DNA of 64,000 nucleotides from Octopus vulgaris (lineage: Eukaryota), in the NCBI GenBank assembly GCA_951406725.2, contig OX597827.1, positions 80,538,001-80,602,000 of the forward strand, given 5' to 3'. Both the position numbers and the translations under genes were made by a program. Every line of letters begins with the position of its first letter. Position 1 is the first letter of the stretch. Under the pieces are notes generated by a model, which saw only the letters and a program-made list of their open reading frames with translations, ran no database searches and was not told where the DNA came from. This document shows positions 170-57,735 of this stretch, piece by piece.

Positions 170-2876
170 CTGAAACTCCTGGTATTTCTTCATAATGTTT
201 CAAGTCTCCATGTCTACCACTTCTCTTGGATGACATTGTATCTGATGTATAGTTACAAACCATAGTAGCATTATCTTCCACAGCATCATCACTTGATGTC
301 ACCACAACAGGTTGACAGTATTTCTGTTGACAAACAAACGAAAAGAAATGTGAGAGAAGACACAAAACGATGGAAGTTACAATCAACATGGATAGAGAAC
401 AATTTAATATTGGAATGTATTATTGAAGTTAAAACATATTCAAAGAGATTTCATTGTTCACTTTTACAGAGAGAAAAATGTAATGTTTCCACTTACTGGG
501 GTAGGTTTTGGTAAAGTTCTCGACTGAACTGAAGATTCATATTTGTTCTGTAGCTGACCTTCTGCATAACATTCACTCTTGGATCTCTCAGAATAGATAT
601 TCCGCTTCACCATCTCTTCTGCATTCCTCGACATAGCAGCAACAGAAGTGTTAGTCTGGTACAACAATTGTTTCATCTCTGCTCTACCTTGGTAGGTTGT
701 ATTCTTTGTGGAAGCAGCTGTGTTATCTCTGTGTTTAATACATTTCATAATACACAGCGTTATAGAAACAACAATAGCCACTGATATTATTACTGCTGAT
801 GATACAATGATAATAACCCATGTCATATGGACCCGACCTGAAGATTGTAAAGGTCCACTCTTCGACATTGGTGACGTCTCGTTACTAACAGCCAATACCA
901 AAGTGATACTAGTTGTTGACGACTGAACTGGACTACCACTGTCCTTCACAACAAACACCAGCTCATAACTTCCAGCATCATTTAGATAAACTTGTCTGGA
1001 GAAGGATAAAGCACCACTGTGTGAGTTCATACTAAACAGCTGTTTATCATTTCCTTGTTTGATTGCATATCTGAGGAAAGCATTGTTTCCACTGTCCCCA
1101 TCAGACGCTCTCAAAACTGTGATGTCACTCTTACTCTGCGGATGGTACTGCACATTTAGCGTGTAAGGGTCACTACTAGGATATGTAAAATACGGAGCAT
1201 TGTCATTTTGATCTAGAATCTCCACAACAACATTCGCTGTGTCATTCAGAGATGGGCTTCCATTGTCTTTGACAAAAACCTCAAACTTATACACATCTTG
1301 TTTCTCTCTGTCCAATGACATGGTCGCTGAAATGAAGCCATAACTGGTGATGAGAAATGGGAGATTGGATTTTTCTTTACGCAGCAGAGAATATGTGAGT
1401 TGTCCAGCAGATCCAAGATCAGGGTCAGTGGCATTGACAAAACCAATAGGGAAGTCTTTATCTTTGTTTTCGTAGGTGAGGAATTGGAATGTATCTTTGG
1501 TAAACTGTGGTTGTACATCGTTGATGTCAGTCACTTGGATAGAGAGGCTTTTAACACTTTTAAGAGGAGGTAATCCTTTATCTTGACAGGAGACAGGAAT
1601 GTTATAGTGTCCTTGTGTTTCTCTGTCCACTGGTTTGTTTAGAATGATTTTATATTCTTTAGATCCCATTGACTGTAGTTTGAATGTATCATGTTTGATA
1701 TCACAGCTGACCTCCCCATTTTGTCCCACATCATTGTCAGTGACCATCACATAAGCAATGAAACTACCAACTTTGGTATCTTCAGAAATGGTAGCTGTGT
1801 TGTCATTGATTGCAGAAACATAATCAATATCAATAGATGGAGGATTGTTGTGTTGATTGATAACATTTACAAGAACTGTTGCTATGGAACTAAAGGGTGG
1901 GCTGCCCCCATCTCTGGCTTCTATAAACAATTCGTAGGTTTTCTTTTTACCCAGACTTGAATATTTACTTAACAAAATAGTGCCACTTGTTTCATTTAAT
2001 TGAAAATAGCTTTTTGCTAAATCTGAAGTTTTGGGGCTGAAATGGAAAGTAATTTTACCATTTTCACCAGAATCAGCATCAGTTACAGATAAAACAATGA
2101 TGGGTTTGGATTTGTGATGTGTACTTTGTATGGATATATTATATAGAGGTTTAGAAAACTCTGGTGGGTTATCATTTATATCTATTATAGAAATATTTAT
2201 GTTTAAAATACCTTGTTTTGCTGGTGAACCTCCATCTTTAGCTATGACCTGTAGTAAATATGTATCTTTGATTTCTCTGTCTAATGATTCTTTTAAAACT
2301 ATGTTAAGTGAAGAAATTCCATCAGCTCTTTTAGACACTGACAGAGAGAATGGTTCTCCATTCTTTGATTTTAATTTATATTGTATTAATGAGTTTTGAA
2401 ATCCTACATCTTTGTCTATGGCATTTGGTAACGATCTTTTTGAACCTTTTGAAATATCTTCTACAAGCTGCATATTGATTTTAATCTTAGGAAATTTTGG
2501 TTCATGATCATTGATGTCCTCTATTACTATTTTGATTTTTAATATCTTTGTAATACTTCTTCCTTTATTGACAACCACCTTCACAATTCTAGAACATTCT
2601 CTATTGAATGTGCAGAGATCTTCTGCATCCAGTGTCTGAGCAGTGTACAGTTTACCTGTTTTGGTGATGTTAAATAACTGTGCCACCTTTCGTTTGAATT
2701 GACTGAATGTTATCAAATGTTGGTCAGATGGTTTAACATTGTCTAAAAGTTTAGAATCGGCAGCAATGTCTGCTACATAAGTTCCTGGACTTCTCTCTTC
2801 TTCCACGTGGTAGGTAAGGTCAATGGTCAGGACACACTGGACCAGTGACAATACAATGCACAATGACAAGGAACAT
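170..2876 (-). CDS. Pcdh: Protocadherin g1 (6 EC + TM); 3' exon lies left of the window; 1-bp frameshift just after the ATG
   Basis: Cadherin motifs (DxNDxxP linkers, LDRE, AxDxGxP), EC1 C-X5-C (CTFNREC), TM WVIIIVSSAVIISVAIVVSITLC. Large exon acceptor ttttag| at 2928, donor CCA|gtaagt at 497; exon 323..170 (acceptor caacag|AAA, donor TCAG|gttagc). The ATG at 2876, homologous to the paralogue starts, is out of frame (ATGTTCCTTGTCA vs ATGTTCCTGTCA in g2). The track ORF begins at a GTG that follows an in-frame stop. Confidence 0.9.
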
Positions 2877-5800
2877 ATTGTTCTGGAGTGATGGTACACT
2901 TCAGGCTATCAAGAAATGTTGTTTGAACCTAAAACAGAAATATAGTTCATTAAACAATTTTTATCAAAAATAAACCACAACTTAAAATCCACAGGTAACA
3001 TCGAAATAATAAGAGGATATGAGCCTCATACTTTATGACAGTTTACTTATAGATTGAAACATATATAAAATGGCTTCAATGTGCTTAACATGACTGAAAA
3101 AAATCAAAAACTAGTTGTCAGGGAAAGTGGTATTAGATAAGTATATTGAAGAAGTTTCTTCAATACCAAAAACATTTTCCATAAGTATTTCAGAGATGTA
3201 CATGCATATGAAGGGTTTTGATCTGAGATCATGTTCTGTAACTAAAATGATCGCAGTCTCAAAGACGTATGTTGACTCAAAAGAAAGCAACAAACGCGTG
3301 CTTCATTTAAACATTTATTTGATAGCTGTTCGGTGAGATGCAGAAAGAAAAATGAAAAAGAAATGTCTGTTAGAATTGCAACATGATGCAGCTGTGAGCA
3401 ATGGAAATTTTGACAGCATATTAAAATAGGGATTTAAGTGAAGTTTCTTAGCCTGAGTGTTTCTTAGTAACTAACTTGTCTTCCAAGCTGCAATTGTATA
3501 AGAAAGTATATGTTCCAAAAATGGATGCATACAAAGCTATGAATTCATGTGTCAACTGAAAAATAGCAAGATGCACACCTACCAAGACCATGAACATAAA
3601 CCATTATTTTCATTATACAAAAGAAGTACAAATGGGTCATCAAAAGACTTGTAATGGCTACTTTAAGTGGTAGAGAATGTTCCATGTTTGGTGTTCTATC
3701 ACTTACATGACTGAATATCTAATTCCATTGCAAATTATATCAGACTGCAATTTGGTTACACTACATTTCACTGGCCGGCTGCCATGTATTTTGTTCACCA
3801 AACAATAAGGGATTAGCAGTGCATAACTTACTTTGGAGTTCATAAGCAGAGGAGCATAACTCTGCTTTTTCATGGGCTTTCAAGATGGAATAACTTAAAC
3901 AAATGCACTCTTACATCAGAGATGAATTCAATCGTACATCAAGACATATACATACTCACTTGTATGCATAACCATGAATACATACGTGCACATGCACACA
4001 TGCACATGCACACATGCACAAGCATGTGTACAGCTAGACACATTCATACAGATATATTCTTCTGCACACATACACACACTTATACATGTGTGCACAGGCA
4101 AAGCCTTCCTAACTGGATTTTCTGTCACAAAAGTCATACGAGAATACCAAGTCCATGAGCGCCTATTACTTATTATTCGAGGAAATAATCTTGTCAGATT
4201 ATGTGGCTTACTTAACCAGAGCTAACATTTTGTAACACCAACATAAAGGCCTTTTTACCACTAGCTTAGCTGGAGTGTGTGCTGCCTGGGGCACCACTTC
4301 AGTTTTCCACCCGTGGGCCGCCATAAAAGTGTCACCTGGGGTTGCCCACCCCATCTGCCCACCTCCATCTATGCTAGTGCTTTTTACCAAATATAATATT
4401 CTTTTACTGTTCACAATGGTAATAATTAGTGGCCAGTGATCAAGGAGAAAATGTATTCCATTCCGTTATTTTCTACAAATGAAAAGTTCTTAAATTAAAT
4501 GTGCATCTTTCTAGAATACTATGAATATATATTTTATACGACTTCAAAATCCTCAGAGCCTGACAAAATTACAAATTTGTATTTGAATCATAAATGGCCA
4601 GAAGAGGTGGTTGCCATCTCCAGCATCTTCAACTATTTATACCAACACTACTAATACTCCAGCATGTAGAGACTGGGTAGAATTATAATCCAATCTAACA
4701 GAATCAACATTACACAGATTTACTCTTCTCAGATGCAAACCTAAAAACAAACAGATTCCTTATTGTCTCTACTGAAACATTTTTCTTTCAAACTTACAAC
4801 ATGCATTTCAAACACTACACTGAACTCCTCCACTCTCAAACCTCACACGGTGTCTGATGATTTAAGCAACAGTAATCAAAACACATTATGATCACCACCA
4901 CTAATTTAAGCAAAACATTTGAATCAAAGAATTTATTTTTATAACTTTTATCTTTGGTAAAAGAGAAATAAACTTCAGTTTAGTCTGACATTCTCATTTC
5001 ATAGTTTTTCCTTGAAACATCTTGGTGATACTGCTTTAACAGAGATGAAGTCAGAGGTATGTTCTTTATCACAGGAAATGTTATCCTTAACAATATTAAT
5101 ATTTTCAATACTTCAGGAACCATTCCAAAAGGTTCCACAGCATCGTCCTTAACCATAGGCTACCTACATATCCCTTACTTCTATAGCTGTCTTGATTCTC
5201 ATCTGTTCAATTCAAAGAAGGATCAAATTGATCCATTCATATTTCTTACCATTTTCCGCCGATTAATTAATATTAGAGTGGTAAGGATGATGGGGTGGGT
5301 TGAACAGGAAGGACTCAGTACTGTCTCATGTTACAAGGGTGCATACGGCCAGATAAACAGGGTGGAGAATGGGTGAAGGAGAAATAGCTTGAGATGGACA
5401 GTATCAGTGAAATAAAGAGAGGTGAGGGGTGTCATGGAAATGAAGAGGGACCAGAGAGAGGGTGTTGAAGTGGTGGAGAAGCTACCAGGGCTGGGCAAAA
5501 TATTTGTATAAATGCTTGGTTGATTGGGTTTGTGTAATTGTTTGTACTTATAACACATCTGTGCACCTAAATAGGCGCCTGGCATCTTGCAGGGATTTTA
5601 CTGAACCAGTAAGACAAACTTTCTCCATATTTGGTGACTTCTAACACATTATTTTACACATCTAGAGCATTTCTTTTCTTTTCTTCCTTCAAAACCATTT
5701 TAAATGAAGAAATTTATGCCATCTCCTTTAATCCATTGTCAAACACAAATCTCAGTCAAGCTTTCAGTTTCCACATAATGTGAGATTAGAGATTATCTCT

Positions 5801-7076: not shown

Positions 7077-7260
7077 CTTTTTGATAATTATATCATTGGT
7101 TATTCAGTGAGAAAGAGAAAGATGTATTGTTGTAGAAAGATCCATTGTAAGTGCTGCTGTAATGGTGTGACAATGGCTGTTATGGTGATGGAGTAGTGTA
7201 GCACGTCAGGCAGAGAGTCTGCTGCTAGGAGAGGGTTGCATGTGTCACTGAAGTTGTATG
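7077..7260 (-). other. Conserved non-coding first exon (5' UTR) of g1
   Basis: ~185 bp block near-identical in six copies, one upstream of each gene; ends in AAAAAG|gtaagt donor. The 5' boundary (TSS) is not determined. Confidence 0.75.
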
Positions 7261-7500
7261 TGTTCTGAGTGTACGTCCACCTGATAATATTCTGTGCATG
7301 TATTTAGCCTCAAAGAAGATGTTTACTATTTACATGGATATATATTTAAATAGCTAGAATTATGTTTATACTGAAACAGAACATAATTGTTTGGGATAAT
7401 AACATTAGTGATGTGAATGCTTGGCTTTGTTAGTGAATTGTTGTGTGTTTTATCCCGAATCTGATTGGTCGAGTGATCGAAACAGGAGACCAATGAAGCT
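7261..7500 (-). promoter_or_regulatory. Putative g1 promoter with inverted CCAAT pair
   Basis: ATTGG 7464-7468 and CCAAT 7490-7494 (21 bp apart); AT-rich TATA-like tract ~7340-7352; arrangement repeated upstream of each exon-1 copy. Confidence 0.6.
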
Positions 7501-7945
7501 GCTCCCTTCATATTGATTTCTTTCCCTGATGAACATGGTCATATATTTAGAGGTTGTGATGATCATGCTTTCCCACAGTGGCTACCAGCTTAAGTTATAG
7601 CATTTATAGTTAATAATAATACGCCAAAGATGTCAGCTAACTTCATCTCATGGATAAATAAAAAATCTCCCTTATGTACTTTTACACAATCAGCAGGAGA
7701 ATTACACAAGCCCCGCAAAGGACAGAGTAAACATGGCAAACCATAGAGAATATAATCTCTGGTTATTATTATCAAGAACACATAGAAAATTTGGTGTATT
7801 ATGGAGTGTAATAAACATTCTTTCATTATATTAAAAACCCCACCTATTTTGCAATCAAGGGATAATTAAAAAAGAAAAAAATAACTTATCTATATTATCT
7901 TTTTGCCTTTGATAATCTGTATTCTTATATAGAGTATATTGCAAA

Positions 7946-8014: not shown

Positions 8015-11000
8015 TTATACATGTTTGACTGGAGTTTCTTCACTGGACTCTTTCGATGTAGTTGCATCGTTATTCTTATATAAATTTTGATCTGGAATTG
8101 AGATTGGAAACAGGCATTACAAAATCACAGACTTGCAGATTCCATTAATTAATTGCTTAATGAAAAAGTTTAAAATATTTATTATAATAAAACATATATT
8201 CTGGAGTTAATAAACTGAAAATCTGAGCAACTTATGATATAATTACTCAAGAATACATAAATAATATGCAGATGACATCAAGCTGTACCTTGAAATAAAG
8301 AGGTCAAATCCTGTACACTATGGATCTCTATTGCAAGCAGACCTGGACACAATGCAGCAGTGGATCATGGACTGGCAACTCAAGCTGGCTGTGGACAAAT
8401 GTACCTCCATGCATTTTGGGAGGAGAAACCCAGCGTCCACCTACTCCCTCCACAACACTAGTCTCAAAAAGTCTTCAAGTGAACGTGACCTGGGTGTTAT
8501 TGTCGACAGTGATTTGCGTTGGACGAAACACATCGCTAAAATTGTCAAGAAGGCTGAGGGTGTCTTGGCATCACTCACCAAATCCTTTGTGAGCCGCTCT
8601 CTGGCTATCTATCTGCGGCTTTATATAGCTATGGTAAGACCTCACCTGGAATTTGCATCACCAGTCTGGAACCCCTATCTTTCCCAGGACATCAATCGTC
8701 TGGAAGCTGTTCAGCGACGTGCAACCAAAAGAATACCCTCCATCAGGCATTTGCCATATCCTGAACGCCTTGCTTCCCTGGGCATGGACACATTGAAGCT
8801 CCGACGTCTGGCAGCTGACTTGGCAGACACCCATAAAATTATCAACCATCGCACAAACAATAACTCTGAGCACCTCTTCAAACTCCACCCATCTAACACC
8901 TGTGGACATATTTACAAAGTCAGAAAACAGCACAGCTCCCATGACTTCAGGAAACATTTTTTCACGCTGAGAGTTGCTGAAGCATGGAACAAACTGCCGG
9001 CATCGGTTGTTAGTTGTCGGAGCACTGCATCCTTCAAAACTTCCATGCTTCCTGAGATTCGCCAACACTACACTTGATTTTCTCCCCTCCATACACACAC
9101 AAGCATGTATCTGACTCATATACTGTTCACTTTCCAGACATTTCTACATTACTGCATGTACTTTATATGCACTTTCTGACAAGTTGTGGTGCACCTGAGC
9201 ACTGTATACAATAATTTCATTATTATTATTATTATTATTATTATAATAAGACCTGTTGAGGCAAGTGTAATCAAAATCAAATTCGATGACTGGCATCCTT
9301 GCTAGCGGGGTGCAAAGAGCACCATACGAGTGTGATCGTTGACAGAGCGGCTAACCGGCTTCTGTGCCAGTGGCACATAAACAGCACCATTCGAGTGTGA
9401 TCATTACCAGCGTTGCCTTACTGGCGCCTGTGCCCATGCTTGTAGGGTGTCAAGAGCACCATCTGAGCGTGATCGTCGCCAGAGCAGCCAACTGGCTTTT
9501 GTGTCGGTGGCACGTAAAAGGGCACCATTTGAGTGTGATCGTTACCAACATCGCCTTACTGGCACTTGTGCTGTTGGCATGTGTAAAAAGATTCGAGCAA
9601 GGTCGTTGCCAGTACCGCCTGACTGGCCACTGTGCCGGTGGCATGTGGAAAGCGCTCACTACACTGTTGGAGTGGTTGGCATTAGGAAGGGCATCCAGCT
9701 GTAGAAACTCTGCCAGATCAGATTGGAGAATGGTGCAGCCATCTGGTTTGCCAGCCCTCAGTCAAAATCGTCAAACCCATGCTAGCATGGAAAGCGGACG
9801 TCAAACAATGATGATGATGATGATGAAAACACATTTATTCCATTTATTCCAAAAATTGTTGACATTAAATATTCCAGAAAAACATGAGGGTAAAAAGTAG
9901 AAATGAATTCTTCACAACCGACAATATGTTTGTTAGAAATGGCAGCTACTAAAAATCCACACTTGAGATGAAAAAACAACATAATGGTTATTAACCTGAT
10001 ACTCCTGGTATTTCTTCGTAATGTTTCAAGTCTCCATGTCTACCACTTCTCTTGGATGACATTGTATCTGATGTATAGTTACAAACCATAGTAGCATTAT
10101 CTTCCACAGCATCATCACTTGATGTCACCACAACAGGTTGACAGTATTTCTGTTGACAAACAAACGATAAAGAAATGTGAGAAGACACCAAACAATGGAA
10201 GTTACAATCAACATGGAGAGAGAACAATTTAATATTGGAATGTATTATTGAAGTTAAAACATATTCAAAGAGATTTTATTGTTCACTTTTACAGAGAGAA
10301 AATGTAATGTTTCCACTTACTGGGGTAGGTTTTGGTAAAGTTCTCGACTGAACTGAAGATTCATATTTGTTCTGTAGCTGACCTTCTGCATAACATTCAC
10401 TCTTGGATCTCTCAGAATAGATATTCCGCTTCACCATCTCTTCTGCATTCCTCGACATAGCAACAGAAGTGTTAGTCTGGTACAACAATTGTTTCATCTC
10501 TGCTCTACCTTGGTAGGCTGTATTCTTTGTGGCAGCAGCTGTGTTATCTCTGTGTTTAATACATTTCATAATACACAGCGTTATAGAAACAACAATAGCC
10601 ACTGATATTATTACTGCTGATGATACAATGATAATAACCCATGTCATATGGACCCGACCTGAAGATTGTAAAGGTCCACTCTTCGACATTGGTGATGTCT
10701 CGTTACTAACAGCCAATACCAAAGTGACACTAGTTGTTGACGACTGAACTGGACTACCACTGTCCTTCACAACAAACACCAGCTCATAACTTCCAGCATC
10801 ATTTAGATAAACTTGTCTGGAGAAGGATAAAGCACCACTGTGTGAGTTCATACTAAACAACTGTTTATCATTTCCTTGTTTGATTGCATATCTGAGGAAA
10901 GCATTGTTTCCACTGTCCCCATCAGAGGCTCTCAAAACTGTGATGTCACTCTTACTCTGCGGATGGTACTGCACATTTAGCGTGTAAGGGTCACCACTAG

Positions 11001-12695
11001 GATATGTAAAATACGGAGCATTGTCATTTTGATCTAGAATCTCAACAACAACATTCGCTGTGTCATTCAGAGATGGGCTTCCATTATCTTTGACAAAAAC
11101 CTCAAACTTATACACATCTTGTTTCTCTCTGTCCAATGACATGGTCGCTGAAATGAAGCCATAACTGGTGATAAGAAATGGGAGATTGGATTTTTCTTTA
11201 CGCAGCAGAGAATATGTGAGTTGTCCAGCAGATCCAAGATCAGGGTCAGTGGCATTGACAAAACCAATAGGGAAGTCTTTATCTTTGTTTTCGTAGGTGA
11301 GGAATTGGAATGTATCTTTGGTAAACTGTGGTTGTACATCGTTGATGTCAGTCACTTGGATAGAGAGGCTTTTAACACTTTTAAGAGGAGGTAATCCTTT
11401 ATCTTGACAGGAGACAGGAATGTTATAGTGTCCTTGTGTTTCTCTGTCCACTGGTTTGTTTAGAATGATTTTATATTCTTTAGATCCCATTGACTGTAGT
11501 TTGAATGTATCATGTTTGATATCACAGCTGACCTCTCCATTTTGTCCCACATCATTGTCAGTGACCATCACATAAGCAATGAAACTACCGACTTTGATGT
11601 TTTCAGAAATGGTAGCTGTGTTGTCATTGATTGCAGAAACATAATCAATATCAATAGATGGAGGATTGTTGTGTTGGTTGATAACATTTATGAGGACTGT
11701 TGCTATAGAACTGAGGGGAGGGCTGCCCCCATCTCTGGCCTCTATAAACAGTTCATAAGTTTTCTTTTTTCCTAAATTTGAATATTTACTCACGAAAATT
11801 TCCCCACTTGTTTCATTCAACTGAAAATAGCTTTCTGCTAGATCTGATGTCTTGGGACTGAAATGGAAAGAAATTTTACCATTTTCACCAGAATCAGCAT
11901 CTGTTACATACAAAATAATGATGGGTTTAGATTTGTGATGTGTACTTTGTATAGATATATTATACAGAGGTTTAGAAAACTCTGGTGGGTTATCATTCAC
12001 ATCTATTACAGAAATATTTATATTAAAATTCCTTGTTTTGCTGGTGACCCTCCATCTTTAGCTATGACCTGTAATAAATATGTATCTTTGATTTCTCTGT
12101 CTAATGATTCTTTTAAAACTATTTTCAGAGAAGAAATACCATCAGCTCTTTTAGACACTGATAGAGAGAATGGTTCTCCAGTCTTTGATCTTAATTTATA
12201 TTGTATTAATGAGTTTTGAAATCCTACATCTTTGTCCATAGCATTGGGTATTGATCTTTTTGCACCTTTACCAATGTCTTCAGAAAACTCTATGTTGATA
12301 TTCTTTATAGGAAAGTTTGGTTGATGGTCATTGATGTCTTCTATGATTATTTTGATTTTTAATATTTTTGAAACACTGGTTCCTTTATTGACAACAACCT
12401 TCATAGTTCTAGAACATTCTTTGTTGAATGTGCAGAGATCTTCTGCATCCAGTGTCTGAGCAGTGTACAGTTTACCTGTTTTGGTGATGTTAAATAACTG
12501 TGCCACCTTTCGTTTGAATTGACTGAATGTTATCAAATGTTGGTCAGATGGTTTAACATTGTCTAAGAGTTTAGAATCGGCAGCAATGTCTGCTACATAT
12601 GTTCCTGGACTTCTTTCTTCTTCCACATGGTAGGTAAGGTCTATGGTCAAGACACAGTGGACCAGTGACAATACAATAGACAATGACAGGAACAT
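8015..12695 (-). CDS. Pcdh: Protocadherin g2; coding exons 12695-10321, 10149-9996, 8091-8015; 1-bp deletion at ~12022
   Basis: The track ORFs 12018..12695 and 10276..12000 join if one A is restored (GILNINISVID, as in paralogues). GT-AG junctions are in phase. Terminal exon reads DQNLYKNNDATTSKESSEETPVKHV*. ~868 aa if corrected. Large-exon acceptor at 12751. Confidence 0.9.
8265..9245 (+). mobile_element. 5'-truncated CR1/L2-type LINE (RT C-terminus, 3' UTR, (ATT)n tail) in g2 intron 3
   Basis: Open frame from YADDIKLY (8265) through ERDLGVIVD, LYIAMVRPHLEFASPVWNP, LEAVQRRATKRI and FFTLRVAEAWNKLP to the stop at 9077; (ATT)n tail ~9219-9243. Confidence 0.9.
9250..9825 (+). mobile_element. 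Non-autonomous retroelement with RTE-type 3' end and (GAT)n tail
   Basis: ggcattaggaagggcatccagctgtagaaac...cccatgctagcatggaaagcggacg followed by (gat)n; internal ~60-70 bp imperfect repeats; many related copies in the window. Confidence 0.8.
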
Positions 12696-13389
12696 ATTGC
12701 TCTTTCTATGCAGGTATGGTTAAAGATATCCAAGTGTACTAAATATTGAACCTAAAAGAGAAATACATTTCTAGTTATTATCAGGAATAAATCAGTTTAA
12801 AATATACATATTTATCAGTGTAACATGAGAAATGTACAAACTGTCTGTTTTACAAAACCACATTGATTCAGAAAGAACCCAGCCATTAAAGAATAGTAAC
12901 AACTCTGTATTGTGAAATTTTATTTGATTCACTAAACAGGTTCTGGATATCTACATTCAATATTTATCCTGACTATCAAAAAGGTTTTGTTTAAAGTTAT
13001 AACAAAGAATACATTCCAAGAATGATGAAGAGGTTGTTTTTAGTTGGTACCAGTTTCTAGATCTCTGCATCAGTCTAAAGAAACGAAAACTGAGAGATAC
13101 TCAGGACATTTATTATCTTATTAATATTAAACTTCAGACTATTATCTCAATGTAATTCAGCAATTATCATTTATTATTTTATATAAATGTTATATTATAG
13201 TTTCTCAATACCTACCCCAGCTAGAGAATGCTGAATGCTCAGTTACTCTGAGAGATTAATATCTAAGTGTATGGAACAACATACAGAATCATGACAGAGT
13301 GGGTTCCGTAGATAATTTAGGAAATTTCTCTGGTTTTGTCAATAATTTATAATTATTGTTTGCATCTCTAACAGTATACTTTGTAAAAT

Positions 13390-17880: not shown

Positions 17881-18066
17881 CTTTTTTTTAATAATTATAT
17901 CATTGGTTATTCAGTGAGAAAGAGAAAGATGTATTGTTGTAGAAAGATCCATTGTAAGTGCTGCTGTAATGGTGTGACAATGGCTGTTATGGTGATGGAG
18001 TAGTGTAGCACGTCAGGCAGAGAGTCTGCTGCTAGGAGAGGGTTGCATGTGTCACTGAAGTTGTAC
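17881..18066 (-). other. Conserved non-coding first exon of g2
   Basis: Near-identical to 7077-7260; donor AG|gtaagt (acttac 17875-17880). Confidence 0.75.
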
Positions 18067-18330
18067 GTTTTGTGGGAGTACGTCCATCTAATAATATTCT
18101 GTATGTATTTATCCTTAAAGATAATGTTTGTTTACTCCTATCAATAACAATTTACATACATCTATTATACATATATTTTAATAGCTACAATATTTGATAA
18201 TAAAGGAAAATATAATCATTTGTTTAATAACATCAGTAATGTAAAGGCTTAGCTTTGTTAGAAATTTCTTTCTATTTTTTAGTGAGAATCTGATTGGCTG
18301 AATGACCTAAACAGAAGACCAATGACGATC
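18067..18330 (-). promoter_or_regulatory. Putative g2 promoter with inverted CCAAT pair
   Basis: ATTGG 18293-18297, CCAAT 18319-18323, 21 bp spacer. Confidence 0.6.
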
Positions 18331-19334: not shown

Positions 19335-22253
19335 TTAGACATGTTTCACTGGTGTTTCTTCACTGGAATCTTTCGAAGTAGATGCATCGTTGTTTTTATA
19401 TAAACTTTGCTCTGAAATTCAAATGAAAATAGATTTTGCCAGGATATCAATACGTTAATACATGGAAAGAATTGTGACATTATTTTTACAGTGTACAGCA
19501 ATTTGTACTTGTTAAAATTATTTGCAAAGTATTGCTAATGCAGTTATTAACCTGATACTCCTGGTATTTCTTCGTAATGTTTCAAGTCTCCGTGTCTACC
19601 ACTTCTCTTGGATGACATTGTATCTGATGTATAGTTACAAACCATAGTAGCATTATCTTCCACAGCATCATCACTTGATGTCACCACAACAGGTTGACAG
19701 TATTTCTGTTGACAAACAAACGATAAAGAAATGTGAGAAGACACCAAACAATGGAAGTTACAATCAACATGGAAAGAGAACAATTTAATATTGGAATGTA
19801 TTATTGAAGTTAAAACATATTCAAAGAGATTTCATTGTTCACTTTTACAGAGAGAAAATGTAATGTTTCCACTTACTGGGGTAGGTTTTGGTAAAGTTCT
19901 CGACTGAACTGAAGATTCATATTTGTTCTGTAGCTGACCTTCTGCATAACATTCACTCTTGGATCTCTCAGAATAGATATTCCGCTTCACCATCTCTTCT
20001 GCATTCCTCGACATAGCAACAGAAGTGTTAGTCTGGTACAACAATTGTTTCATCTCTGCTCTACCTTGGTAGGCTGTATTCTTTGTGGCAGCAGCTGTGT
20101 TATCTCTGTGTTTAATACATTTCATAATACACAGCGTTATAGAAACAACAATAGCCACTGATATTATTACTGCTGATGATACAATGATAATAACCCATGT
20201 CATATGGACCCGACCTGAAGATTGTAAAGGTCCACTTTTCGACATTGGTGACGTCTCGTTACTAACAGCCAATACCAAAGTGACACTAGTTGTTGACGAC
20301 TGAACTGGACTACCACTGTCCTTCACAACAAACACCAGCTCATAACTTCCAGCATCATTTAGATAAACTTGTCTGGAGAAGGATAAAGCACCACTGTGTG
20401 AGTTCATACTAAACAACTGTTTATCATTTCCTTGTATGATTGCATATCTGAGGAAAGCATTGTTTCCACTGTCCCCATCAGAGGCTCTCAAAACTGTGAT
20501 GTCACTCTTACTCTGTGGATGGTACTGCACATTTAGCGTGTAAGGGTCACTACTAGGATATGTAAAATACGGAGCATTGTCATTTTGATCTAGAATCTCA
20601 ACAACAACATTCGCTGTGTCATTCAGAGATGGGCTTCCATTATCTTTGACAAAAACCTCAAATTTATACACATCTTGTTTCTCTCTGTCCAATGACATGG
20701 TCGCTGAAATGAAGCCATAACTGGTGATGAGAAATGGCAGATTGGATTTTTCTTTACGCAGCAGAGAATATGTGAGTTGTCCAGCAGATCCAAGATCAGG
20801 GTCAGTGGCATTGACAAAACCAATAGGGAAGTCTTTATCTTTGTTTTCGTAGGTGAGGAATTGGAATGTATCTTTGGTAAACTGTGGTTGTACATCGTTG
20901 ATGTCAGTCACTTGGATAGAGAGGCTTTTAACACTTTTAAGAGGAGGTAATCCTTTATCTTGACAGGAGACAGGAATGTTATAGTGTCCTTGTGTTTCTC
21001 TGTCCACTGGTTTGTTTAGAATGATTTTATATTCTTTAGATCCCATTGACTGTAGTTTGAATGTATCATGTTTGATATCACAGCTGACCTCTCCATTTTG
21101 TCCCACATCATTGTCAGTGACCATCACATAAGCAATGAAACTACCAACTCTGGTGTCTTCCGAAAGGGTAGCTGTGTTGTCATTGATTGCAGAAACATAA
21201 TCAATATCAATAGATGGAGGATTGTTGTGTTGGTTGATGACATTTACCAAAACAGTTGCTATGGAACTGAGAGGAGGAATACCTCCATCTCTGGCCTCTA
21301 TGAACAATTCATAAGTTTTCTTTTTTCCCAGATTTGAATATTCCCTTAACAGAATATTTCCATTGGTTTTGTTCAACTGAAAATAGCTTTTAGCTATATC
21401 TGATGTCTTTGGACTGAAATGGAAAGTAATTTTACCATTTTCACCAGCATCAGCATCTGTCACAGACAAAACAATGATGGGTTTAGATTTGTGATGTGCA
21501 CTTTGTATGGATACATTATACAGAGGTTTTGAAAATACAGGTGGGTTGTCATTCAAATCTGTTACAGAAATATTTATATTCAAAATCCCTTGTTTTGCTG
21601 GTGACCCTCCATCTTTAGCTATGACCTGTAATAAATATGTATCTTTCATTTCTCTGTCTAATGTTTGTTTTAAAACTATTTTAAGTGAAGAAATACCATC
21701 AGCTCTTTTAGCCACTGACAGAGAGAATGGTTCTCCATTCTTTGATTTTAATTTATATTGTATTAAGGAATTTTGAAATCCAACATCTTTATCTATGGCA
21801 TTTGGTATTGATTGTTTTGCACCTTTAGCTATATTCTCATAAAACTCTATGTTGATATTCTTTATAGGAAAGTTTGGTTGATGGTCATTAATGTCTTCTA
21901 TGATTATTTTGATTTTTAATATTTTTGTAATACTTCTTCCTTTATTAACCACAACTTTCACAGTTCTAGAACATTCTTTGTTGAATGTGCAGAGATCTTC
22001 TGCATCCAGTGTCTGAGCAGTGTACAGTTTACCTGTTTTGGTGATGTTAAATAACTGTGCCACCTTTCGTTTGAATTGACTGAATGTTATCAAATGTTGG
22101 TCAGATGGTTTAACATTGTCTAAAAGTTTAGAATCGGCAGCAATGTCTGCTACATATGTTCCTGGACTTTCTCTCTTCTTCCACATGGTAGGTAAGGTCT
22201 ATGGTCAGGACACAGTGGACCAGTGACAATACAATAGACAATGCCAATAACAT
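19335..22253 (-). CDS. Pcdh: Protocadherin g3; coding exons 22253-19877, 19705-19552, 19411-19335; 1-bp insertion at ~22168-22170
   Basis: Signal peptide MLLALSIVLSLVHCVLT starts at 22253. An extra T (gactttctct vs gacttctct) shifts the frame after YHVEEER; the rest is the 784-aa track ORF. Terminal exon reads EQSLYKNNDASTSKDSSEETPVKHV*. Large-exon acceptor at 22302. Confidence 0.9.
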
Positions 22254-22409
22254 TATTGTAGAATGATGGATACTTAAAATCGTTTGAATATGTTGATGGG
22301 ACCTAAAATAGAAATACAAATTCATTAAAGAATTGTAATGAGAAATAAATAACAGTTTAAAATACAGAGATATCATTGAAATAATAGGAATATATAAATC
22401 TATCACTTC

Positions 22410-30007: not shown

Positions 30008-30191
30008 CTTTTTGATAATTATATCATTGGTTATTCAGTGAGAAAGAGAAAGATGTATTGTTGTAGAAAGATCCATTGTAAGTGCTGCTGTAATGGTGTG
30101 ACAATGGCTGTTATGGTGATGGAGTAGTGTAGCACGTCAGGCAGAGAGTCTGCTGCTAGGAGAGGGTTGCATGTGTCACTGAAGTTGTATG
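30008..30191 (-). other. Conserved non-coding first exon of g3
   Basis: Near-identical to 7077-7260; donor acttac 30002-30007. Confidence 0.75.
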
Positions 30192-30445
30192 TTTTGTGGG
30201 AGTACATCCATCTAATAATATTCTACATGTATTTATCCTTAAAGATGATGTTTGTTTGCTGGTATCAATAACTATTTAAATATATAGATATAAATTTATA
30301 TAAATGCAATATTCTATTGTTAAACATTAGTGTCTGGTTTAATAACATCAGTAAAGCAAAAGCTAATCTTAGTCAGTGATTTCTTTCTATGTTTCAGTGA
30401 GAATCTGATTGGTTGAATGATCGTGACAGAAGACCAATGAAGATG
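30192..30445 (-). promoter_or_regulatory. Putative g3 promoter with inverted CCAAT pair
   Basis: ATTGG 30408-30412, CCAAT 30434-30438, 21 bp spacer. Confidence 0.6.
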
Positions 30446-30892: not shown

Positions 30893-33800
30893 TTATACAT
30901 GTTTGACTGGAGTTTCTTCACTGGATTCTTTCGACGTAGTTGCATCATTATTCTTATATAAATTTTGATCTGGAATTTAGATTGGAAACATGCATTACAA
31001 AATCACAGGCTTGAAGATCTCATTAATTAATTAATTGCTTAATGAAAAAGATATAATAACAGAAACATACATTCGGAGGTTATGATCACAAAAAGTCAGT
31101 AAAAATCACATAAGCAAAAGAGTAAATGAATTCTTTGTCAGAAAATGTTGCTAATAAAATGTTGATTATTCACAAGATAAAAGATTTAAAGTATTGCTAA
31201 TGCAGTTATTAACCTGATACTCCTGGTATTTCTTCGTAATGTTTCAAGTCTCCGTGTCTACCACTTCTCTTGGATGACATTGTATCTGATGTATAGTTAC
31301 AAACCATAGTAGCATTATCTTCCACAGCATCATCACCTGATGTCACCACAACAGGTTGACAGTATTTCTGTTGACAAACAAACGATAAAGAAATGTAAGA
31401 AGACAACAAACAATGGAAGTTACAATCAACATGGATAGAGAACAATTTAATATTGGAATGTATTACTGAAGTTAAAACATATTCAAAGAGATTTCATTGT
31501 TCACTTTTACAGAGAGAAAATGTAATGTTTCCACTTACTGGGGTAGGTTTTGGTAAAGTTCTCGACTGAACTGAAGATTCATATTTGTTCTGTAGCTGAC
31601 CTTCTGCATAACATTCACTCTTGGATCTCTCAGAATAGATATTCCGCTTCACCATCTCTTCTGCATTCCTCGACATAGCAACAGAAGTGTTAGTCTGGTA
31701 CAACAATTGTTTCATCTCTGCTCTACCTTGGTAGGCTGTATTCTTTGTGGCAGCAGCTGTGTTATCTCTGTGTTTAATACATTTCATAATACACAGCGTT
31801 ATAGAAACAACAATAGCCACTGATATTATTACTGCTGATGATACAATGATAATAACCCATGTCATATGGACCCGACCTGAAGATTGTAAAGGTCCACTCT
31901 TCGACATTGGTGATGTCTCGTTACTAACAGCCAATACCAAAGTGACACTAGTTGTTGACGACTGAACTGGACTACCACTGTCCTTCACAACAAACACCAG
32001 CTCATAACTTCCAGCATCATTTAGATAAACTTGTCTGGAGAAGGATAAAGCACCACTGTGTGAGTTCATACTAAACAACTGTTTATCATTTCCTTGTTTG
32101 ATTGCATATCTGAGGAAAGCATTGTTTCCACTGTCCCCATCAGAGGCTCTCAAAACTGTGATGTCACTCTTACTCTGCGGATGGTACTGCACATTTAACG
32201 TGTAAGGGTCGCTACTAGGATATGTAAAATACGGAGCATTGTCATTTTGATCTAGAATCTCAACAATAACATTCGCTGTGTCATTCAGAGATGGGCTTCC
32301 ATTGTCTTTGACAAAAACCTCAAACTTATACACATCTTGTTTCTCTCTGTCCAATGACATGGTCGCTGAAATGAAGCCATAACTGGTGATGAGAAATGGG
32401 AGATTGGATTTTTCTTTACGCAGCAGAGAATATGTGAGTTGTCCAGCAGATCCTAGATCAGGGTCAGTGGCATTGACAAAACCAATAGGGAAGTCTTTAT
32501 CTTTGTTTTCGTAGGTGAGGAATTGGAATGTATCTTTGGTAAACTGTGGTTGTACATCGTTGATGTCAGTCACTTGGATAGAGAGGCTTTTAACACTTTT
32601 GAGAGGAGGTAATCCTTTATCTTGACAGGAGACAGGAATGTTATAGTGTCCTTGTGTTTCTCTGTCCACTGGTTTGTTTAGAATGATTTTATATTCTTTA
32701 GATCCCATTGATTGTAGTTTGAATGTATCATGTTTGATATCACAGCTGACCTCTCCATTTTGTCCCACATCATTGTCAGTGACCATCACATATGCAATGA
32801 AACTACCGACTTTGATCTTTTCAGAGATGGTACCTGTGTTGTCACTGATCGCAGAAACATAATCAATATCAATAGATGGAGGATTGTTGTGTTGGTTGAT
32901 AACATTTACCAAAACAGTTGCGATAGAACTGATTGGGGGATTGCCTCCATCTCTGGCCTCTATAAATAATTCAAAAGTATTTTTTTCATTCAAACTAGAA
33001 ATTCTAGATAAAAATACTTTGCCAGCTTTTTTATCCAATTCGAAATATTTCTTTGCTAAATCAGAAGTTTTGGGGCTGAAATGAAAAGTAATTTTACTGT
33101 TGGACCCTGCATCTTTGTCCGTTACTGACAAAGTAAGAATAGGTTTTGTCTTGTCGTGTGTGGTTCTAATGGAAATATTATAAAGTGGTTTTGAAAATAC
33201 AGGTGGATTATCATTCTCATCTTCAACAACAATCACAACATTTAACACACACTGTTTAGATGGAGAACCTCCATCTTTAGCAATAACTTCTAAATTGTAT
33301 TTATCTTTTAACTCTCGGTCTAATTTCTCTTTCAAGACAATATTTAATGATGAAATACCATCAGCTCTTTTAGAAACTGACAAAGAAAATGAATTAGACT
33401 TTTTAAGTTTATATTCAATGAAAGAATTTTGATAACTCACATCTTTGTCTATGGCATTTGGAATTGACTTTTTCATACCTTCACGATCTCCTTCCCTAAA
33501 TTTTAAAATTATTTGTTTTTCAGGAAACTCCGGTTCATGGTCATTGATGTCTTCTATCACTATTTTGACTTTTAATATTTTTGTGAAACTATCCACTTTC
33601 TTAATAATAACTTTCACAGTTCTGGAACATTCTTTGTTGAATGTGCAGAGATCTTCTGCATCCAGTGTCTGAGCAGTGTACAGTTTACCTGTTTTGGTGA
33701 TATTAAATAACTGTGCCACCTTTCGTTTGAATTGACTGAATGTTATCAGATGTTGGTCAGATGGTTTAACATTGTCTAAAAGTTTAGAATCGGCAGCAAT

Positions 33801-33908
33801 GTCTGCTACATATGTTCCTGGACTTCTCTCTTCTTCCACATGGTACGTGAGGTCTATGGTCAGGACACAGTGGACCAGTGACAATACAATGGACAATGAG
33901 AGGAACAT
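30893..33908 (-). CDS. Pcdh: Protocadherin g4, intact, ~866 aa; coding exons 33908-31539, 31367-31214, 30969-30893
   Basis: 804-aa track ORF with signal peptide, six EC repeats and TM; in-phase GT-AG junctions; terminal exon DQNLYKNNDATTSKESSEETPVKHV*. Large-exon acceptor at 33968. Confidence 0.95.
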
Positions 33909-36309
33909 TTTGGTTGCTGCTGCCTGTTGTTACTTTTTAAATATATCAGATGTTTTAGTGGATTGAACCTAAAACCAGAAGCATATTTACTTGGTTAGAT
34001 ATTATTGTAAATTAACCACAGTTTGAAAAATGAAATTATTATAAAATTAGAATTATATGAATGTATTATTTCATATATGAATAGCAAAGCATGTATGAAA
34101 AATGAAATTGTCAATGTTTCTATAAAACTGTAAAACAAAACAATTATGTACTCCGTAACATCAGAATCACCAAAGCTAGGATTAAATATTTTTAGAGCAG
34201 AATTATTAGGACTCATACAAAAGATTCACCTATAAAACTGTAACAAGATAATGTAGTTTTCCAAGATAATGTAATTTTTATGCTGAATTCTGATTAGTAA
34301 GAGTTTAACAGATTTTCGTTATTATTACTTTTATACATGTGACTATGAGTGATCTGTTGTCGTGTAATTTTTCAAGTCTGTTACCCTAACCAACACAACT
34401 GTCAAAATACTCTATCAGATCGTTTACATCACTCTGTCATACCACCAATGCAATGATAAATTGTTGTTACCTGCTTTCTTCATAATCAGCATAAAGATTG
34501 AAGTAATTATATTCTAAAGGTTCCTACAAATATCAATAGCTGATTATATTTACATTCAGTTCCATTGCTCTTCCACTTTCACACTCTGGAAGGCTCTACA
34601 ATACATAATGCATTACCTGCATACTGGAGATCCTTCTGTCCCCTAATATACTTTCTGATTCTTATTAAAAGGAGAAAAAGAAATCACTAAGAAGAAAGAA
34701 TCTATACTGAATTCCAAATCAATAGTTGTTTTACCCAAAGTTTCAGCTATTCTCCAAAGTTCCAAATGACAGTTTTATACCTTTAAGGAGACTGCTCAGC
34801 TATTCTACTTCATTAACAACCAAATATTTCCAAGTAGGCTTAATTCCCAATTCGTTTAACTACCTTGCTCTTAATTGTCTGTCACAACAAGAGTTACCTT
34901 AATTGCAAACATTCAGGCCAGGTCGCCAGGTCAGCAGCTTACATATAACTGGCTCACTTTAATTACAGAGACTCTGAGAAGCCATTCAGAAGATCAAAAA
35001 CTACATTTAATTGAAGAATGATAACTTATTATGTCTTCTGTAGGTTGAGTAGTGGACGAACAATCTGTGAAACATGAAATACTTGAAAAAGTAGAAGTGT
35101 TAGTTTATGTTATTAAAAACAAAACTTTTTTTGTTTCATTTCACAGAGAAAAGTAATGGGCATGTTTTAGTGGATTCATTAAAGTTGTTTCCCTGCAATG
35201 TGTATATATATATAAAGGGGTTTGTATGATTGTGTATAGAGGGATATATATTAGTCAAAGAAATTCCAATTTTATTTATATTCTTTATAATATTAATGTA
35301 GAATATAGAATATATAGTATAAATAGTATATATAGTAAAATGAAATGAAGTATTGATTGTCTTATTGAATAGGTGAAATACTGAATATAAAATATTAAGG
35401 GACTAGTATACTTTCTTGCATTAAAGCAGTCTTCAAAGCCCCAGGAGTGTATATATGTATGTATATATATATATATATATATATGCAGATCCTATTAGAG
35501 TGGCTAATAATTCCCCTGTAGCACAGGCGCTGCCACTAGTATCATCATCATCACCATCCTCCTCTTACATTTGTCCTCCATTCTGGTATGGGTGATCCTG
35601 ATGTAAGCCATTTGGCCAGGTTACCAAGGTTGAATGTGTTCCTCTCGCTAACCACTTATAGAAATGCACTGGGTGTGTTTTCTCATGCCACTAACAAGAC
35701 TTAAGCATAGCCCATGGAGACAGTGCAGAATAAGTCAGGATAGGGAGTAGTATAATAAAAATAATACAGATGACAGAAGGATGTGAGAGAATGAGAGAGT
35801 GAACGAGAGAGAGAGATGATGTGTGGTTGGGCAGGTTGCAAGAGGTAAGCATATTGCATGGGGACAATGAAAAGAGGAGAGATAAAATGGTGACTTGGGT
35901 GAGTGATCAGTGTGAAATGTGGGTGGAGAGGACAGTGTCAAGAATGAATGGTGGATATCATGTGAAATGATTCCAGGTAGAGAAGAACATAAGTGGTATC
36001 AGGGAAAAGTTGGTGGAGTAAGCAGTTCTGCTCAGAATTATTTACAGCAGCAGAACACAGAAGTGAAAAAGATGTTGGGTGATGGGGATGAGTGAGGGCC
36101 ACTTGTGTATGACGCACATTGTGCTTCAAGAGGTTCAGGATTCTGAGATAAGCCTGTTCCCTGTCCCCTTGTAGCAAGCTCCATTCCTCTTAAGACATTG
36201 GCACTTCTTTTTCGGCTGTCCTCATCCATATGCATCATATATCTGTACCAGTGCAGTCCATTTTACTTGTGCACTACATCTCATTCCTCTAATTCCCAAT
36301 TTTTCTTTC

Positions 36310-43175: not shown

Positions 43176-43359
43176 CTTTTTAATAATTATATCATTGGTT
43201 ATTCAGTGAGAAAGAGAAAGCTGTATTGTTGTAGAAAGATCCATTGTAAGTGCTGCTGTAATGGTGTGACAATGGCTGTTATGGTGATGGAGTAGTGTAG
43301 CACGTCAGGCAGAGAGTCTGCTGCTAGGAGAGGGTTGCATGTGTCACTGAAGTTGTATG
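43176..43359 (-). other. Conserved non-coding first exon of g4
   Basis: Near-identical block; donor acttac 43170-43175. Confidence 0.75.
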
Positions 43360-43585
43360 TTTTCTGAGTGTACGTCCATCTAATAATGTATTTATCCTTA
43401 AAGATGATATTTGTCAGCTATTTACATATATATATATATATAGATATATATAAACAGCTACACATAAAAAAATTGTTAAGTTTAATAATATCAGCAATGT
43501 GAATAGCTTTGTTAGTGATTTCTTTCTATGTTTTTAGTGAGAGTCTGATTGGCTGAATGACCTAAACAGAAGACCAATGATGATG
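43360..43585 (-). promoter_or_regulatory. Putative g4 promoter with inverted CCAAT pair
   Basis: ATTGG 43548-43552, CCAAT 43574-43578, 21 bp spacer; spacer sequence identical to g2's. Confidence 0.6.
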
Positions 43586-44392: not shown

Positions 44393-47310
44393 TTAGACAT
44401 GTTTCACTGGTGTTTCTTCACTGGAATCTTTTGATGTAGATGTATCATTGTTCTTATAAATACTTTGATCTGAAATTTAGATGAAAATAGACATTTCTGA
44501 CAAAATCCTAAAATATAGGCACTTTAATACAGATTGAAGAATTAGAGATAATTATTAAATGTCAATGCATGAAATATAAATGAAGTCAAAAAACCAGTTT
44601 ATTTATTAACCTGATACTCCTGGTATTTCTTCGTAATGTTTCAACTCTCCATGTCTACCACTTCTCTTGGATGACATTGTATCTGATGTATAGTTACAAA
44701 CCATAGTAGCATTATCTTCCACAGCATCATCACTTGATGTCACCACAACAGGTTGACAGTATTTCTGTTGACAAACAAACGAAAAGAAATGTGAGAAGAC
44801 ACCAAACAATGGAAGTTACAATCAACATGGAAAGAGAACAATTTAATATTGGAATGTATTATTGAAGTTAAAACATATTCAAAGAGATTTCATTGTTCAC
44901 TTTTACAGAGAGAAAATGTAATGTTTCCACTTACTGGGGTAGGTTTTGGTAAAGTTCTCGACTGAACTGAAGATTCATATTTGTTCTGTAGCTGACCTTC
45001 TGCATAACATTCACTCTTGGATCTCTCAGAATAGATATTCCGCTTCACCATCTCTTCTGCATTCCTCGACATAGCAACAGAAGTGTTAGTCTGGTACAAC
45101 AATTGTTTCATCTCTGCTCTACCTTGGTAGGCTGTATTCTTTGTGGCAGCAGCTGTGTTATCTCTGTGTTTAATACATTTCATAATACACAGCGTTATAG
45201 AAACAACAATAGCCACTGATATTATTACTGCTGATGATACAATGATAATAACCCATGTCATATGGACCCGACCTGAAGATTGTAAAGGTCCACTCTTCGA
45301 CATTGGTGATGTCTCGTTACTAACAGCCAACACCAAAGTGACACTAGTTGTTGACGACTGAACTGGACTACCACTGTCCTTCACAACAAACACCAGCTCA
45401 TAACTTCCAGCATCGTTTAGATAAACTTGTCTGGAGAAGGATAAAGCACCACTGTGTGAGTTCATACTAAACAACTGTTTATCATTTCCTTGTTTGATTG
45501 CATATCTGAGGAAAGCATTGTTTCCACTGTCCCCATCAGACGCTCTCAAAACTGTGATGTCACTCTTACTCTGCGGATGGTACTGCACATTTAGCGTGTA
45601 AGGGTCACTACTAGGATATGTAAAATACGGAGCATTGTCATTTTGATCTAGAATCTCAACAACAACATTCGCTGTGTCATTCAGAGATGGGCTTCCATTG
45701 TCTTTGACAAAAACCTCAAACTTATACACATCTTGTTTCTCTCTGTCCAATGACATGGTCGCTGAAATGAAGCCATAACTGGTGATGAGAAATGGGAGAT
45801 TGGATTTTTCTTTACGCAGCAGAGAATATGTGAGTTGTCCAGCAGATCCAAGATCAGGGTCAGTGGCATTGACAAAACCAATAGGGAAGTCTTTATCTTT
45901 GTTTTCATAGGTGAGGAATTGGAATGTATCTTTGGTAAACTGTGGTTGTACATCGTTGATGTCAGTCACTTGGATAGAGAGGCTTTTAACACTTTTAAGA
46001 GGAGGTAATCCTTTATCTTGACAGGAGACAGGAATGTTATAGTGTCCTTGTGTTTCTCTGTCCACTGGTTTGTTTAGAATGATTTTATATTCTTTAGATC
46101 CCATTGACTGTAGTTTGAATGTATCATGTTTGATATCACAGCTGACCTCTCCATTTTGTCCCACATCATTGTCGGTGACCATCACATAAGCAATGAAACT
46201 ACCAACTTTGATGTCTTCAGAAATGGTAGCTGTGTTGTCATTGATTGCATTAACATAATCAATATCAATAGATGGAGGATTATTGTGTTGGTTGATAACA
46301 TTTACCAAAACTGTTGCTATAGAACTGAGAGGAGGGCTGCCCCCATCTCTGGCCTCTATGAACAGTTCATAAGTTTTCTTTTTTCCTAAACTTGTATATT
46401 TACTTAACAAAATAGTTCCACTGTTTTCATTTACCTCAAAATAGCTTTTTGCTAGATCTGATGTTTTGGGACTGAAGTGGAAAGTAATTTTACCATTTTC
46501 ACCAGCATCAGCATCAGTCACAGATAAAACAATGATGGGTTTAGACTTGTGATAGGTACTTTGTATGGATATATTATATAAAGGTTTAGAAAATACAGGT
46601 GGGTTGTCGTTCAAATCTATTATTGAGATATTTATATTTAAAATACCTTGTTTTGCTGGTGACCCTCCATCTTTAGCTATGACCTGTAATAAATAAGTAT
46701 CTTTGATTTCTCTGTCTAATGATTCTTTCAAAACTATTTTAAGAGAAGAAATACCATCAGCTCTTTTAGACACTGACAGAGAGAATGGTTCTCCATTCTT
46801 TGATTTTAATTTATATTGAATTAATGAGTTTTGAAATCCAACATCTTTGTCCATAGCATTGGGTATTGATCTGTCTGAACCTTTGCGATCATGTTCACCA
46901 AACTCAATATTTACTCCTTTTATAGGAAATTCAGGTTCATGGTCATTGATATCTTCTATTACTATTTTGATTTTTAGTACTTTTGTAACACTGGTTCCTT
47001 TATTGACAACAACTTTGACAGTTCTGGAACATTCTTTGTTGAATGTGCAGAGATCTTCTGCATCCAGTGTCTGAGCAGTGTACAGTTTACCTGTTTTGGT
47101 GATGTTAAATAACTGTGCCACCTTTCGTTTGAATTGACTGAATGTTATCAAATGTTGGTCAGATGGTTTAACATTGTCTAAAAGTTTAGAATCGGCAGCA
47201 ATGTCTGCTACATATGTTCCTGGACTTCTCTCTTCTTCCACATGGTAGGTAAGGTCTATGGTCAAGACACAGTGGACCATTGACAGTACAATGGACAATG
47301 GTAGGAACAT
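44393..47310 (-). CDS. Pcdh: Protocadherin g5, intact, ~868 aa; coding exons 47310-44935, 44764-44611, 44469-44393
   Basis: 806-aa track ORF plus two spliced exons; terminal exon DQSIYKNNDTSTSKDSSEETPVKHV*. Large-exon acceptor at 47350. Confidence 0.95.
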
Positions 47311-47624
47311 GTTGATAGTTCGTCTTGTTTAAAAAATCAAATGTGTTAACCTAAGAAGAGAAATACATTTCTATTTATTATCAGAAGTAAATCATTTTAA
47401 AATATAGTTATCAGTTACATTAGAAATATGAATCTATTACTTTAGAAAACTGCATTTATAGATTTTATGAAGAAGTCAATAATTTGTTTCAATGAATCTG
47501 CAAAACTGAGAAAAATAGCAAAAGCTATGTATCCTATGAAAGAGATTTTATTTAATTCACTAAATTGTTTTTGGATAACTACACTGAAGAACAAGAATGA
47601 GAACCAGAACAATGATAACAGCAG

Positions 47625-57325: not shown

Positions 57326-57500
57326 CTTTTTTAATAATTATATCATTGGTTATTCAGTGAGAACAGAAAGATGTATTGTTGTAGAAAGATCCATTGTAAG
57401 TGCTGCTGTAATGGTGTGACAATGGCTGTATGGTGATGGAGTAGTGTAGCACGTCAGGCAGAGAGTCTGCTGCTAGGAGAAGGTTGCATGTGTTGTATGT
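57326..57500 (-). other. Non-coding first exon of g5 (most diverged copy)
   Basis: Same block with a 9-bp deletion (cactgaagt) and two 1-bp deletions; donor acttac 57320-57325. Confidence 0.7.
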
Positions 57501-57735
57501 TTGCAGGAGTACATCCACCTAATAATATCCTGTGTGTATTTATCCTTAAAGATGATGTTTGTTATTTAGGTAAATATTTGAGCAGTTACAATATTATAGA
57601 GTGAAACAGAACATAATTGTTTGGCTTAAAAACATCAGCAATGTGAATGCTTGGCTTTGTTAGTGAATTTTTTTTCTGTGTTCTATTGTGGATTTGATTG
57701 GTTGAGTGATCGAAACAGGAGACCAATGAAGGTGC
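57501..57735 (-). promoter_or_regulatory. Putative g5 promoter with inverted CCAAT pair
   Basis: ATTGG 57697-57701, CCAAT 57723-57727, 21 bp spacer; most similar to the g1 promoter. Confidence 0.6.

Follow-up and report, generated by a model that had tools for sequence, protein, structure and literature searches.

Everted CCAAT pairs and a near-invariant non-coding block as candidate promoter features of an octopus protocadherin array

Organisation and homogenisation of the gene array

The window, i.e., the whole 64-kb stretch of Octopus vulgaris DNA analysed here, contains six protocadherin genes (A–F) arranged head to tail on the minus strand (Table 1). Their best protein matches are O. vulgaris and O. 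sinensis records, and two O. vulgaris records match the variable part of a gene at 100% identity, P0001 in gene E and P0124 in gene C. In every gene a large exon is accompanied by a separate set of two small tail exons. In three of the six genes a single-base break interrupts the reading frame of the large exon, near 2870 in A, near 12020 in B and near 22170 in C. These three genes are either pseudogenes or affected by assembly errors. In gene C, the out-of-frame ATG is where the P0124 record starts. In gene B, the last intron is extended by ~1.8 kb (window ~8100–9900); the insert contains a dispersed repeat and a 241-aa plus-strand ORF, which on visual inspection resembles part of a LINE and has no Pfam match.

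Similarity between the genes is distributed very unevenly. Inter-gene identity reaches 97–100% in the first cadherin repeat and again from around repeat four up to and including the small intron that follows, averages 73–89% in the second and third repeats, and drops to 61–73% around the acceptor and signal peptide. Among the intact genes D, E and F, 21/89 to 35/74 four-fold sites (24–47%) differ in the divergent part of the ectodomain, so the paralogs are not simply young.

Table 1. Positions of the genes, non-coding blocks and CCAAT-related features in the window
Feature	Gene or unit	Position	Strand	Remarks
Large exon	A	497..2928	-	Acceptor 2928, ATG 2876; 1-nt frame break near start; predicted intron 1 of 4148 nt
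Large exon	B	10321..12751	-	ATG 12695; frame break after codon 225; predicted intron 1 of 5129 nt
Large exon	C	19877..22302	-	ATG 22253; frame break near codon 29; predicted intron 1 of 7705 nt
Large exon	D	31539..33968	-	ATG 33908; intact, cadherin domains; predicted intron 1 of 9207 nt
Large exon	E	44935..47350	-	ATG 47310; intact; predicted intron 1 of 9975 nt
Large exon	F	59054..61479	-	ATG 61426; intact; predicted intron 1 of ~2135 nt
Two cytoplasmic-tail exons	D	30896..31367	-	31367 to ~31218 and ~30976-30896; annotated tails mapped
Non-coding block	A	7077..7245	-	Putative 3' part of exon 1; donor GT at 7076
Non-coding block	B	17881..18052	-	Donor at 17880
Non-coding block	C	30008..30176	-	Donor at 30007
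Non-coding block	D	43176..43344	-	Donor at 43175
Non-coding block	E	57326..57493	-	Donor at 57325
Non-coding block	F (sixth unit)	63615..63783	-	Donor at 63614
Everted CCAAT pair	A	7462..7496		Proximal CCAAT minus, 7464-7468; distal plus, 7490-7494; putative gene A promoter
Everted CCAAT pair	B	18291..18325		Pattern match and NF-Y consensus
Everted CCAAT pair	C	30406..30440		Pattern match and NF-Y consensus
Everted CCAAT pair	D	43546..43580		Pattern match and NF-Y consensus
Everted CCAAT pair	E	57695..57729		Proximal box 11/12 to consensus
ARTCRAT island	A–E	7512..7518; also ~18339, 30456, 43597, 57745	-	20-23 nt before distal box, 5/5 units
Coding ATTGG-N20-CCAAT pair		867, 10688, 20244, 31906, 59421		5/6 paralogs; copy-only look-alike

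Leader block and splice signals

Each of the six units contains a non-coding block of ~169 nt, the six copies of which differ from each other by 0–3 bases. In five units the end of the block lies 376–417 nt downstream of a pair of CCAAT boxes on the transcribed strand, and 208–245 nt of AT-rich, indel-rich sequence separate the pair from the block. The ATG of the next gene lies ~4.6–10.4 kb past the pair. All blocks end in AG|GTAAGT. This sequence occurs six times in the window, always on the minus strand and always at a block end; the shuffle mean was 2.1 and none of 100 shuffles reached six, the six window copies being paralogous. On the acceptor side, a pyrimidine-rich TTAG|GT is located 40–60 nt before the ATG in all six genes and is preceded by a branch-point-like YTRAY in all six. 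A stricter acceptor filter recovered four of the six proposed acceptors and returned other candidates inside the introns of B, C and E. Three upstream ORFs of 11, 13–14 and 2 codons are present in the block. Every one of them stops before the donor, and no frame is open from the block into the coding exon. A donor and an acceptor in front of the ATG, as expected of a first exon, are thus both present.

The simplest reading is that the block represents an untranslated first exon, which would be spliced over an intron of ~2.1–10 kb to the large coding exon. Transcript-based annotations may already show this exon. It was absent from the first-pass annotation of this DNA; compared with the CCAAT pair, the near-invariant putative first exon is the stronger feature. 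The block also carries TGACGTG (at 7203 in gene A) and a third CCAAT. As a structured RNA it found no support: the window had no Rfam matches and the block folds no better than its shuffles (z = -0.48). A 21-nt piece of the block had no matches in metagenomes, an uninformative scan for an animal gene.

Identity of the block is at the level of the homogenised parts of the genes, while its flanks differ by 7–31%. Gene conversion has been proposed for cephalopod protocadherin arrays (PMC9068888), and we infer that it may keep the block alike, working on islands whose similarity is maintained by selection. One practical consequence is that 5' reads from the shared exon would be unassignable to a paralog.

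The CCAAT pair as a candidate NF-Y promoter element

Pattern scan of the window found TGATTGG-N21-CCAATGA five times, which recovers every copy listed by the first-pass annotation. None of 100 shuffles contained a match, under a null that ignores paralogy. The ATTGG...CCAAT pair is everted, with the 5' sides of both boxes directed toward the spacer. The spacer measures 21 nt from edge to edge, matching the two helical turns described earlier, but measured between the starts of the two boxes the distance is 26 nt, or ~2.5 turns. Four distinct spacer sequences were found in the five-copy alignment. The copies at 18293 and 43548 are identical and those at 7464 and 57697 differ at one position out of 21, so the earlier division into three spacer types is a fair one if understood as three lineages. 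Numerous indels nearby are equally real, as the same alignment has 22 gap events in ~317 nt of flanking sequence.

The five pairs are evidently copies of one ancestral element. The term "cluster-wide signature" applied to them earlier fits the five units, but these belong to just one homogenised subfamily and share the pair by descent. The sixth unit extends to the window edge, with base 64000 aligned four columns past the proximal CCAAT, and the alignment predicts a sixth pair at ~64004–64034, just past the window, where the first-pass annotation had suggested that one might be found.

A lone N21 pair is also present at 27652. The spacers at 18293 and 43548 contain TTTAGGTCA on the minus strand, a word which we take to be similar to a nuclear-receptor half-site; the other three spacers lack it. 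The ARTCRAT island found next to the distal box in all five units is presumably Onecut-like. Onecut-positive cells constitute 83% of O. vulgaris brain cells according to the consulted part of the single-cell study (PMC9712504).

All 14 box columns (TCATTGG and CCAATCA) are invariant, compared to eight variable columns out of 21 in the spacer and 140 out of 258 (54%) in the flanks. Invariant five-column windows are rare in the flanks (7/303). As the motif was chosen for its invariance, this test of box conservation is post hoc. The pattern suggests purifying selection on both boxes.

The 12-bp consensus reported for NF-Y is YYRRCCAATCAG (PMC3507159). It matches four times in the window (shuffle mean 0.21), all four matches coincide with proximal boxes, and they include three different RR pairs, GA, AG or AA. 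The proximal box fits the consensus at 12/12 positions in four units and at 11/12 in unit E, the distal box at 8/12. The extended CCAAT pattern is RRCCAATSR. All 16 CCAAT inside the units fit this pattern, as opposed to 3 of 150 outside, and these 16 represent three ancestral sites. Counted by ancestry, all three ancestral CCAAT fit, compared to 3 of 118 unique contexts elsewhere. The earlier assignment of these boxes to NF-Y is supported by the consensus fit combined with box invariance, binding itself being predicted from the sequence. NF-Y contacts are reported to span positions -7 to +17 relative to the first C (PMC4982600). Since ~7 bp are needed on the 5' side of each box and the spacer has 21, two NF-Y trimers could sit back to back on the pair.

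The block with its donor downstream of the pair and an acceptor before each ATG make it likely that the pair is located in the promoter of the untranslated first exon. We consider it probable that the pair is an NF-Y-bound promoter element, one per paralog, inherited by tandem duplication and driving a near-identical untranslated first exon. In the proposed mechanism, NF-Y would bind the pair via a strong proximal and a weaker distal site, transcription would start within the ~380–420 nt that separate the donor from the proximal box, and the leader exon would then be spliced across the 2–10 kb intron onto the large coding exon. Descent from one copy would suffice to account for the constant spacer. 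The word "promoter", used already in the first-pass annotation, gains from the sequence architecture (block, perfect donor, acceptor before the ATG), from which the start site and transcription are predicted. Several observations count against the promoter reading. The stricter acceptor filter recovered only four of the six acceptors, the distal box fits the consensus at only 8/12 positions, everted pairs are the rarer arrangement in human data, and the pair lies just 456–1013 nt from the stop of the upstream gene. In addition, CCAAT boxes are typically found 60–100 bp from the transcription start, a distance exceeded by the 208–245 nt between the pair and the invariant block. Visual inspection also gave DPE-, Inr- and TCT-like matches, which were set aside since their spacing differs from copy to copy or the motifs are too loosely defined.

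The pair could instead be a 3' UTR or termination element of the upstream gene, or a local enhancer, with the true promoter located in the block or elsewhere. Given the nearby upstream stop and the lack of AATAAA or ATTAAA between this stop and the pair in units A and C (2/5), the pair may fall inside the upstream 3' UTR. In the octopus annotation, some PCDH gene models are reported to be fused by read-through transcripts (PMC9712504, consulted in part), and the TGACGTG and CCAAT of the block could serve a promoter placed there. However, an RNA element is not expected to match a double-stranded DNA-binding consensus on two strands, units D and E have AATAAA 87–270 nt past the upstream stop, well before the motif, and the distance from the pair to the downstream donor is held more tightly than that to the upstream stop. 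We regard this alternative as unlikely. Still less probable is that the pair is a neutral chance feature of the duplicated unit, alike in all copies via recent duplication or gene conversion. Conversion-like homogenisation is certainly strong in this array (98–100% over long tracts including the small intron), and units B and D differ by 4% in the pair region, but most unit pairs differ by 13–25% there with the boxes unchanged, and a chance origin agrees poorly with the fit of all three ancestral CCAAT to the extended pattern. The idea that the pair lies in a last coding exon, the spacer being seven codons, was rejected as having practically no chance of being correct. One minus-strand frame is alike across the pair and ends at a common stop position in all five units; yet the annotated tails are two other small exons which stop 456–1013 nt earlier, indels of 1–2 nt break the frame just upstream, and a conserved acceptor was not found in the alignment. 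The earlier end of the annotated tails and the frame-breaking indels decided the matter.

As an addition to the promoter reading, NF-Y may use the two boxes cooperatively as a single platform, with selection acting on their 26-bp everted geometry itself. Among the inter-island distances, the box-to-box distance alone is constant, the others ranging over 58–77, 20–23, 158–186, 49–61 and 23–26 nt. The pair also sits inside a 53-column gap-free run, the longest one outside the block, and its 26 bp agrees with a known class of double-CCAAT promoters. Against this, the probability of finding no indel at the local indel rate is 0.20–0.42 over 21 nt (five alignment settings, overlapping gaps merged or not; 0.23 in the five-copy alignment) and 0.09–0.27 over 31 nt, and 31 of 74 upstream 21-nt windows are equally gap-free. 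Many of the flank indels lie in AT-rich runs (GC content is 27.8% downstream compared to 41% in the spacer), and only three spacer lineages stand behind the five copies. Moreover, copying and coding constraint have kept the coding ATTGG-N20-CCAAT pair equally invariant in five of six paralogs. The first-pass annotation had taken the constant spacer to indicate selection on geometry rather than copying. Such indel-free probabilities and three lineages do not establish that claim. Constant spacing is compatible with constraint, and a selected geometry is possible but doubtful and unproven.

Relation to known promoters and protocadherin clusters

Double-CCAAT promoters with boxes 26 bp apart are already known as a class. 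Two CCAAT boxes at 24–28 bp are described as common in human promoters (PMC4889920), and the octopus distance falls within this range, the consulted part of the source leaving the orientation of the class unstated. As far as they are described (PMC4889920, PMC4982600), human double-CCAAT NF-Y promoters resemble the octopus pair in the 26-bp distance, the extended consensus and the room for two trimers. In the human data, however, direct repeats (main peak at 31 bp) far outnumber inverted or everted pairs according to the same material (PMC4982600), whereas the octopus pair is everted. The octopus units are also AT-rich and CpG-poor (3–6 CpG per unit), unlike the human double-CCAAT promoters, and NF-Y binding is predicted here.

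Vertebrate clustered protocadherins offer another comparison. Their promoters are reported to share a CGCT-box CTCF element (CSE) just before each coding exon (PMC7811963, PMC3333863). From what the consulted parts of these sources describe, the two systems are alike in the tandem array, in having one promoter per paralog with a shared promoter motif, and in conversion-like homogenisation that spares cadherin repeats 2 and 3. The candidate octopus promoter, however, would lie apart from the coding exon, with an untranslated exon and an intron of 2–10 kb between the two, unlike the vertebrate CSE promoters. A single CGCT/AGCG is present in all five promoter-exon units taken together, CGCT thus occurring just once on the transcribed strand, so within the units the shared vertebrate CSE was not found. 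A CTCF core (up to two mismatches) matched at two places in the window and nowhere in the units. Vertebrate alpha and gamma clusters join variable exons to shared constant exons, whereas in the octopus array the tail exons are repeated in every gene. The octopus array and the vertebrate clusters are independent expansions.

Cephalopod protocadherin arrays are described as head-to-tail, multi-exon duplicates of full genes with conversion (PMC9068888, PMC6339937, PMC9795677), and the window is an array of this type. The promoter motif and the non-coding first exon are absent from these descriptions as far as the consulted parts extend. The main texts of PMC9068888, PMC9795677 and PMC9712504 do not contain the word "promoter", and the supplement of PMC6339937 (one file) contains neither the block motif nor "UTR". 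Our literature search, with most subscription papers outside its scope, found no described cephalopod protocadherin promoter and no literature joining cephalopod, protocadherin and CCAAT. A 2023 review, consulted in part, calls cephalopod clusters enigmatic and expects only cohesin-like mechanisms. What appears to be new here, for cephalopod protocadherins, is a candidate promoter that lacks the CGCT/CTCF element of vertebrates, along with a putative leader exon that is near-invariant.

These candidate promoters are exact ones and are relevant to the control of ~160 clustered cephalopod protocadherins. Since they lie 2–10 kb from the coding exons, a scan beside the ATG would miss them. They point toward control by NF-Y rather than by a CSE/CTCF site. 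O. vulgaris brain cells were reported to express 19 protocadherin genes on average (PMC9712504, consulted in part).

Going further, we speculate that the array inverts the vertebrate design, with interchangeable leaders, geometry-locked NF-Y promoters and CTCF-free protocadherin choice, though we give this rather little chance. If it were true, read-through and long-range splicing would allow any leader to be joined to the ectodomain or tail exons of a downstream paralog, and each promoter, located within ~1 kb of the end of the previous gene, would suffer interference from transcription of that gene. Two pairs of O. sinensis isoform X1/X2 records are relevant, each taken as one locus from the record names only. 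P0125 and P0128 combine one large exon with two paralog tails (three differences, all in the tail), and P0132 and P0134 combine two ectodomains with one tail (29 differences in residues 2–304). Such records would result either from genuine splicing across paralogs or from reads mis-mapped between exons that are near-identical. Taken together with the reported read-through fusions, they weakly favour the inverted design.
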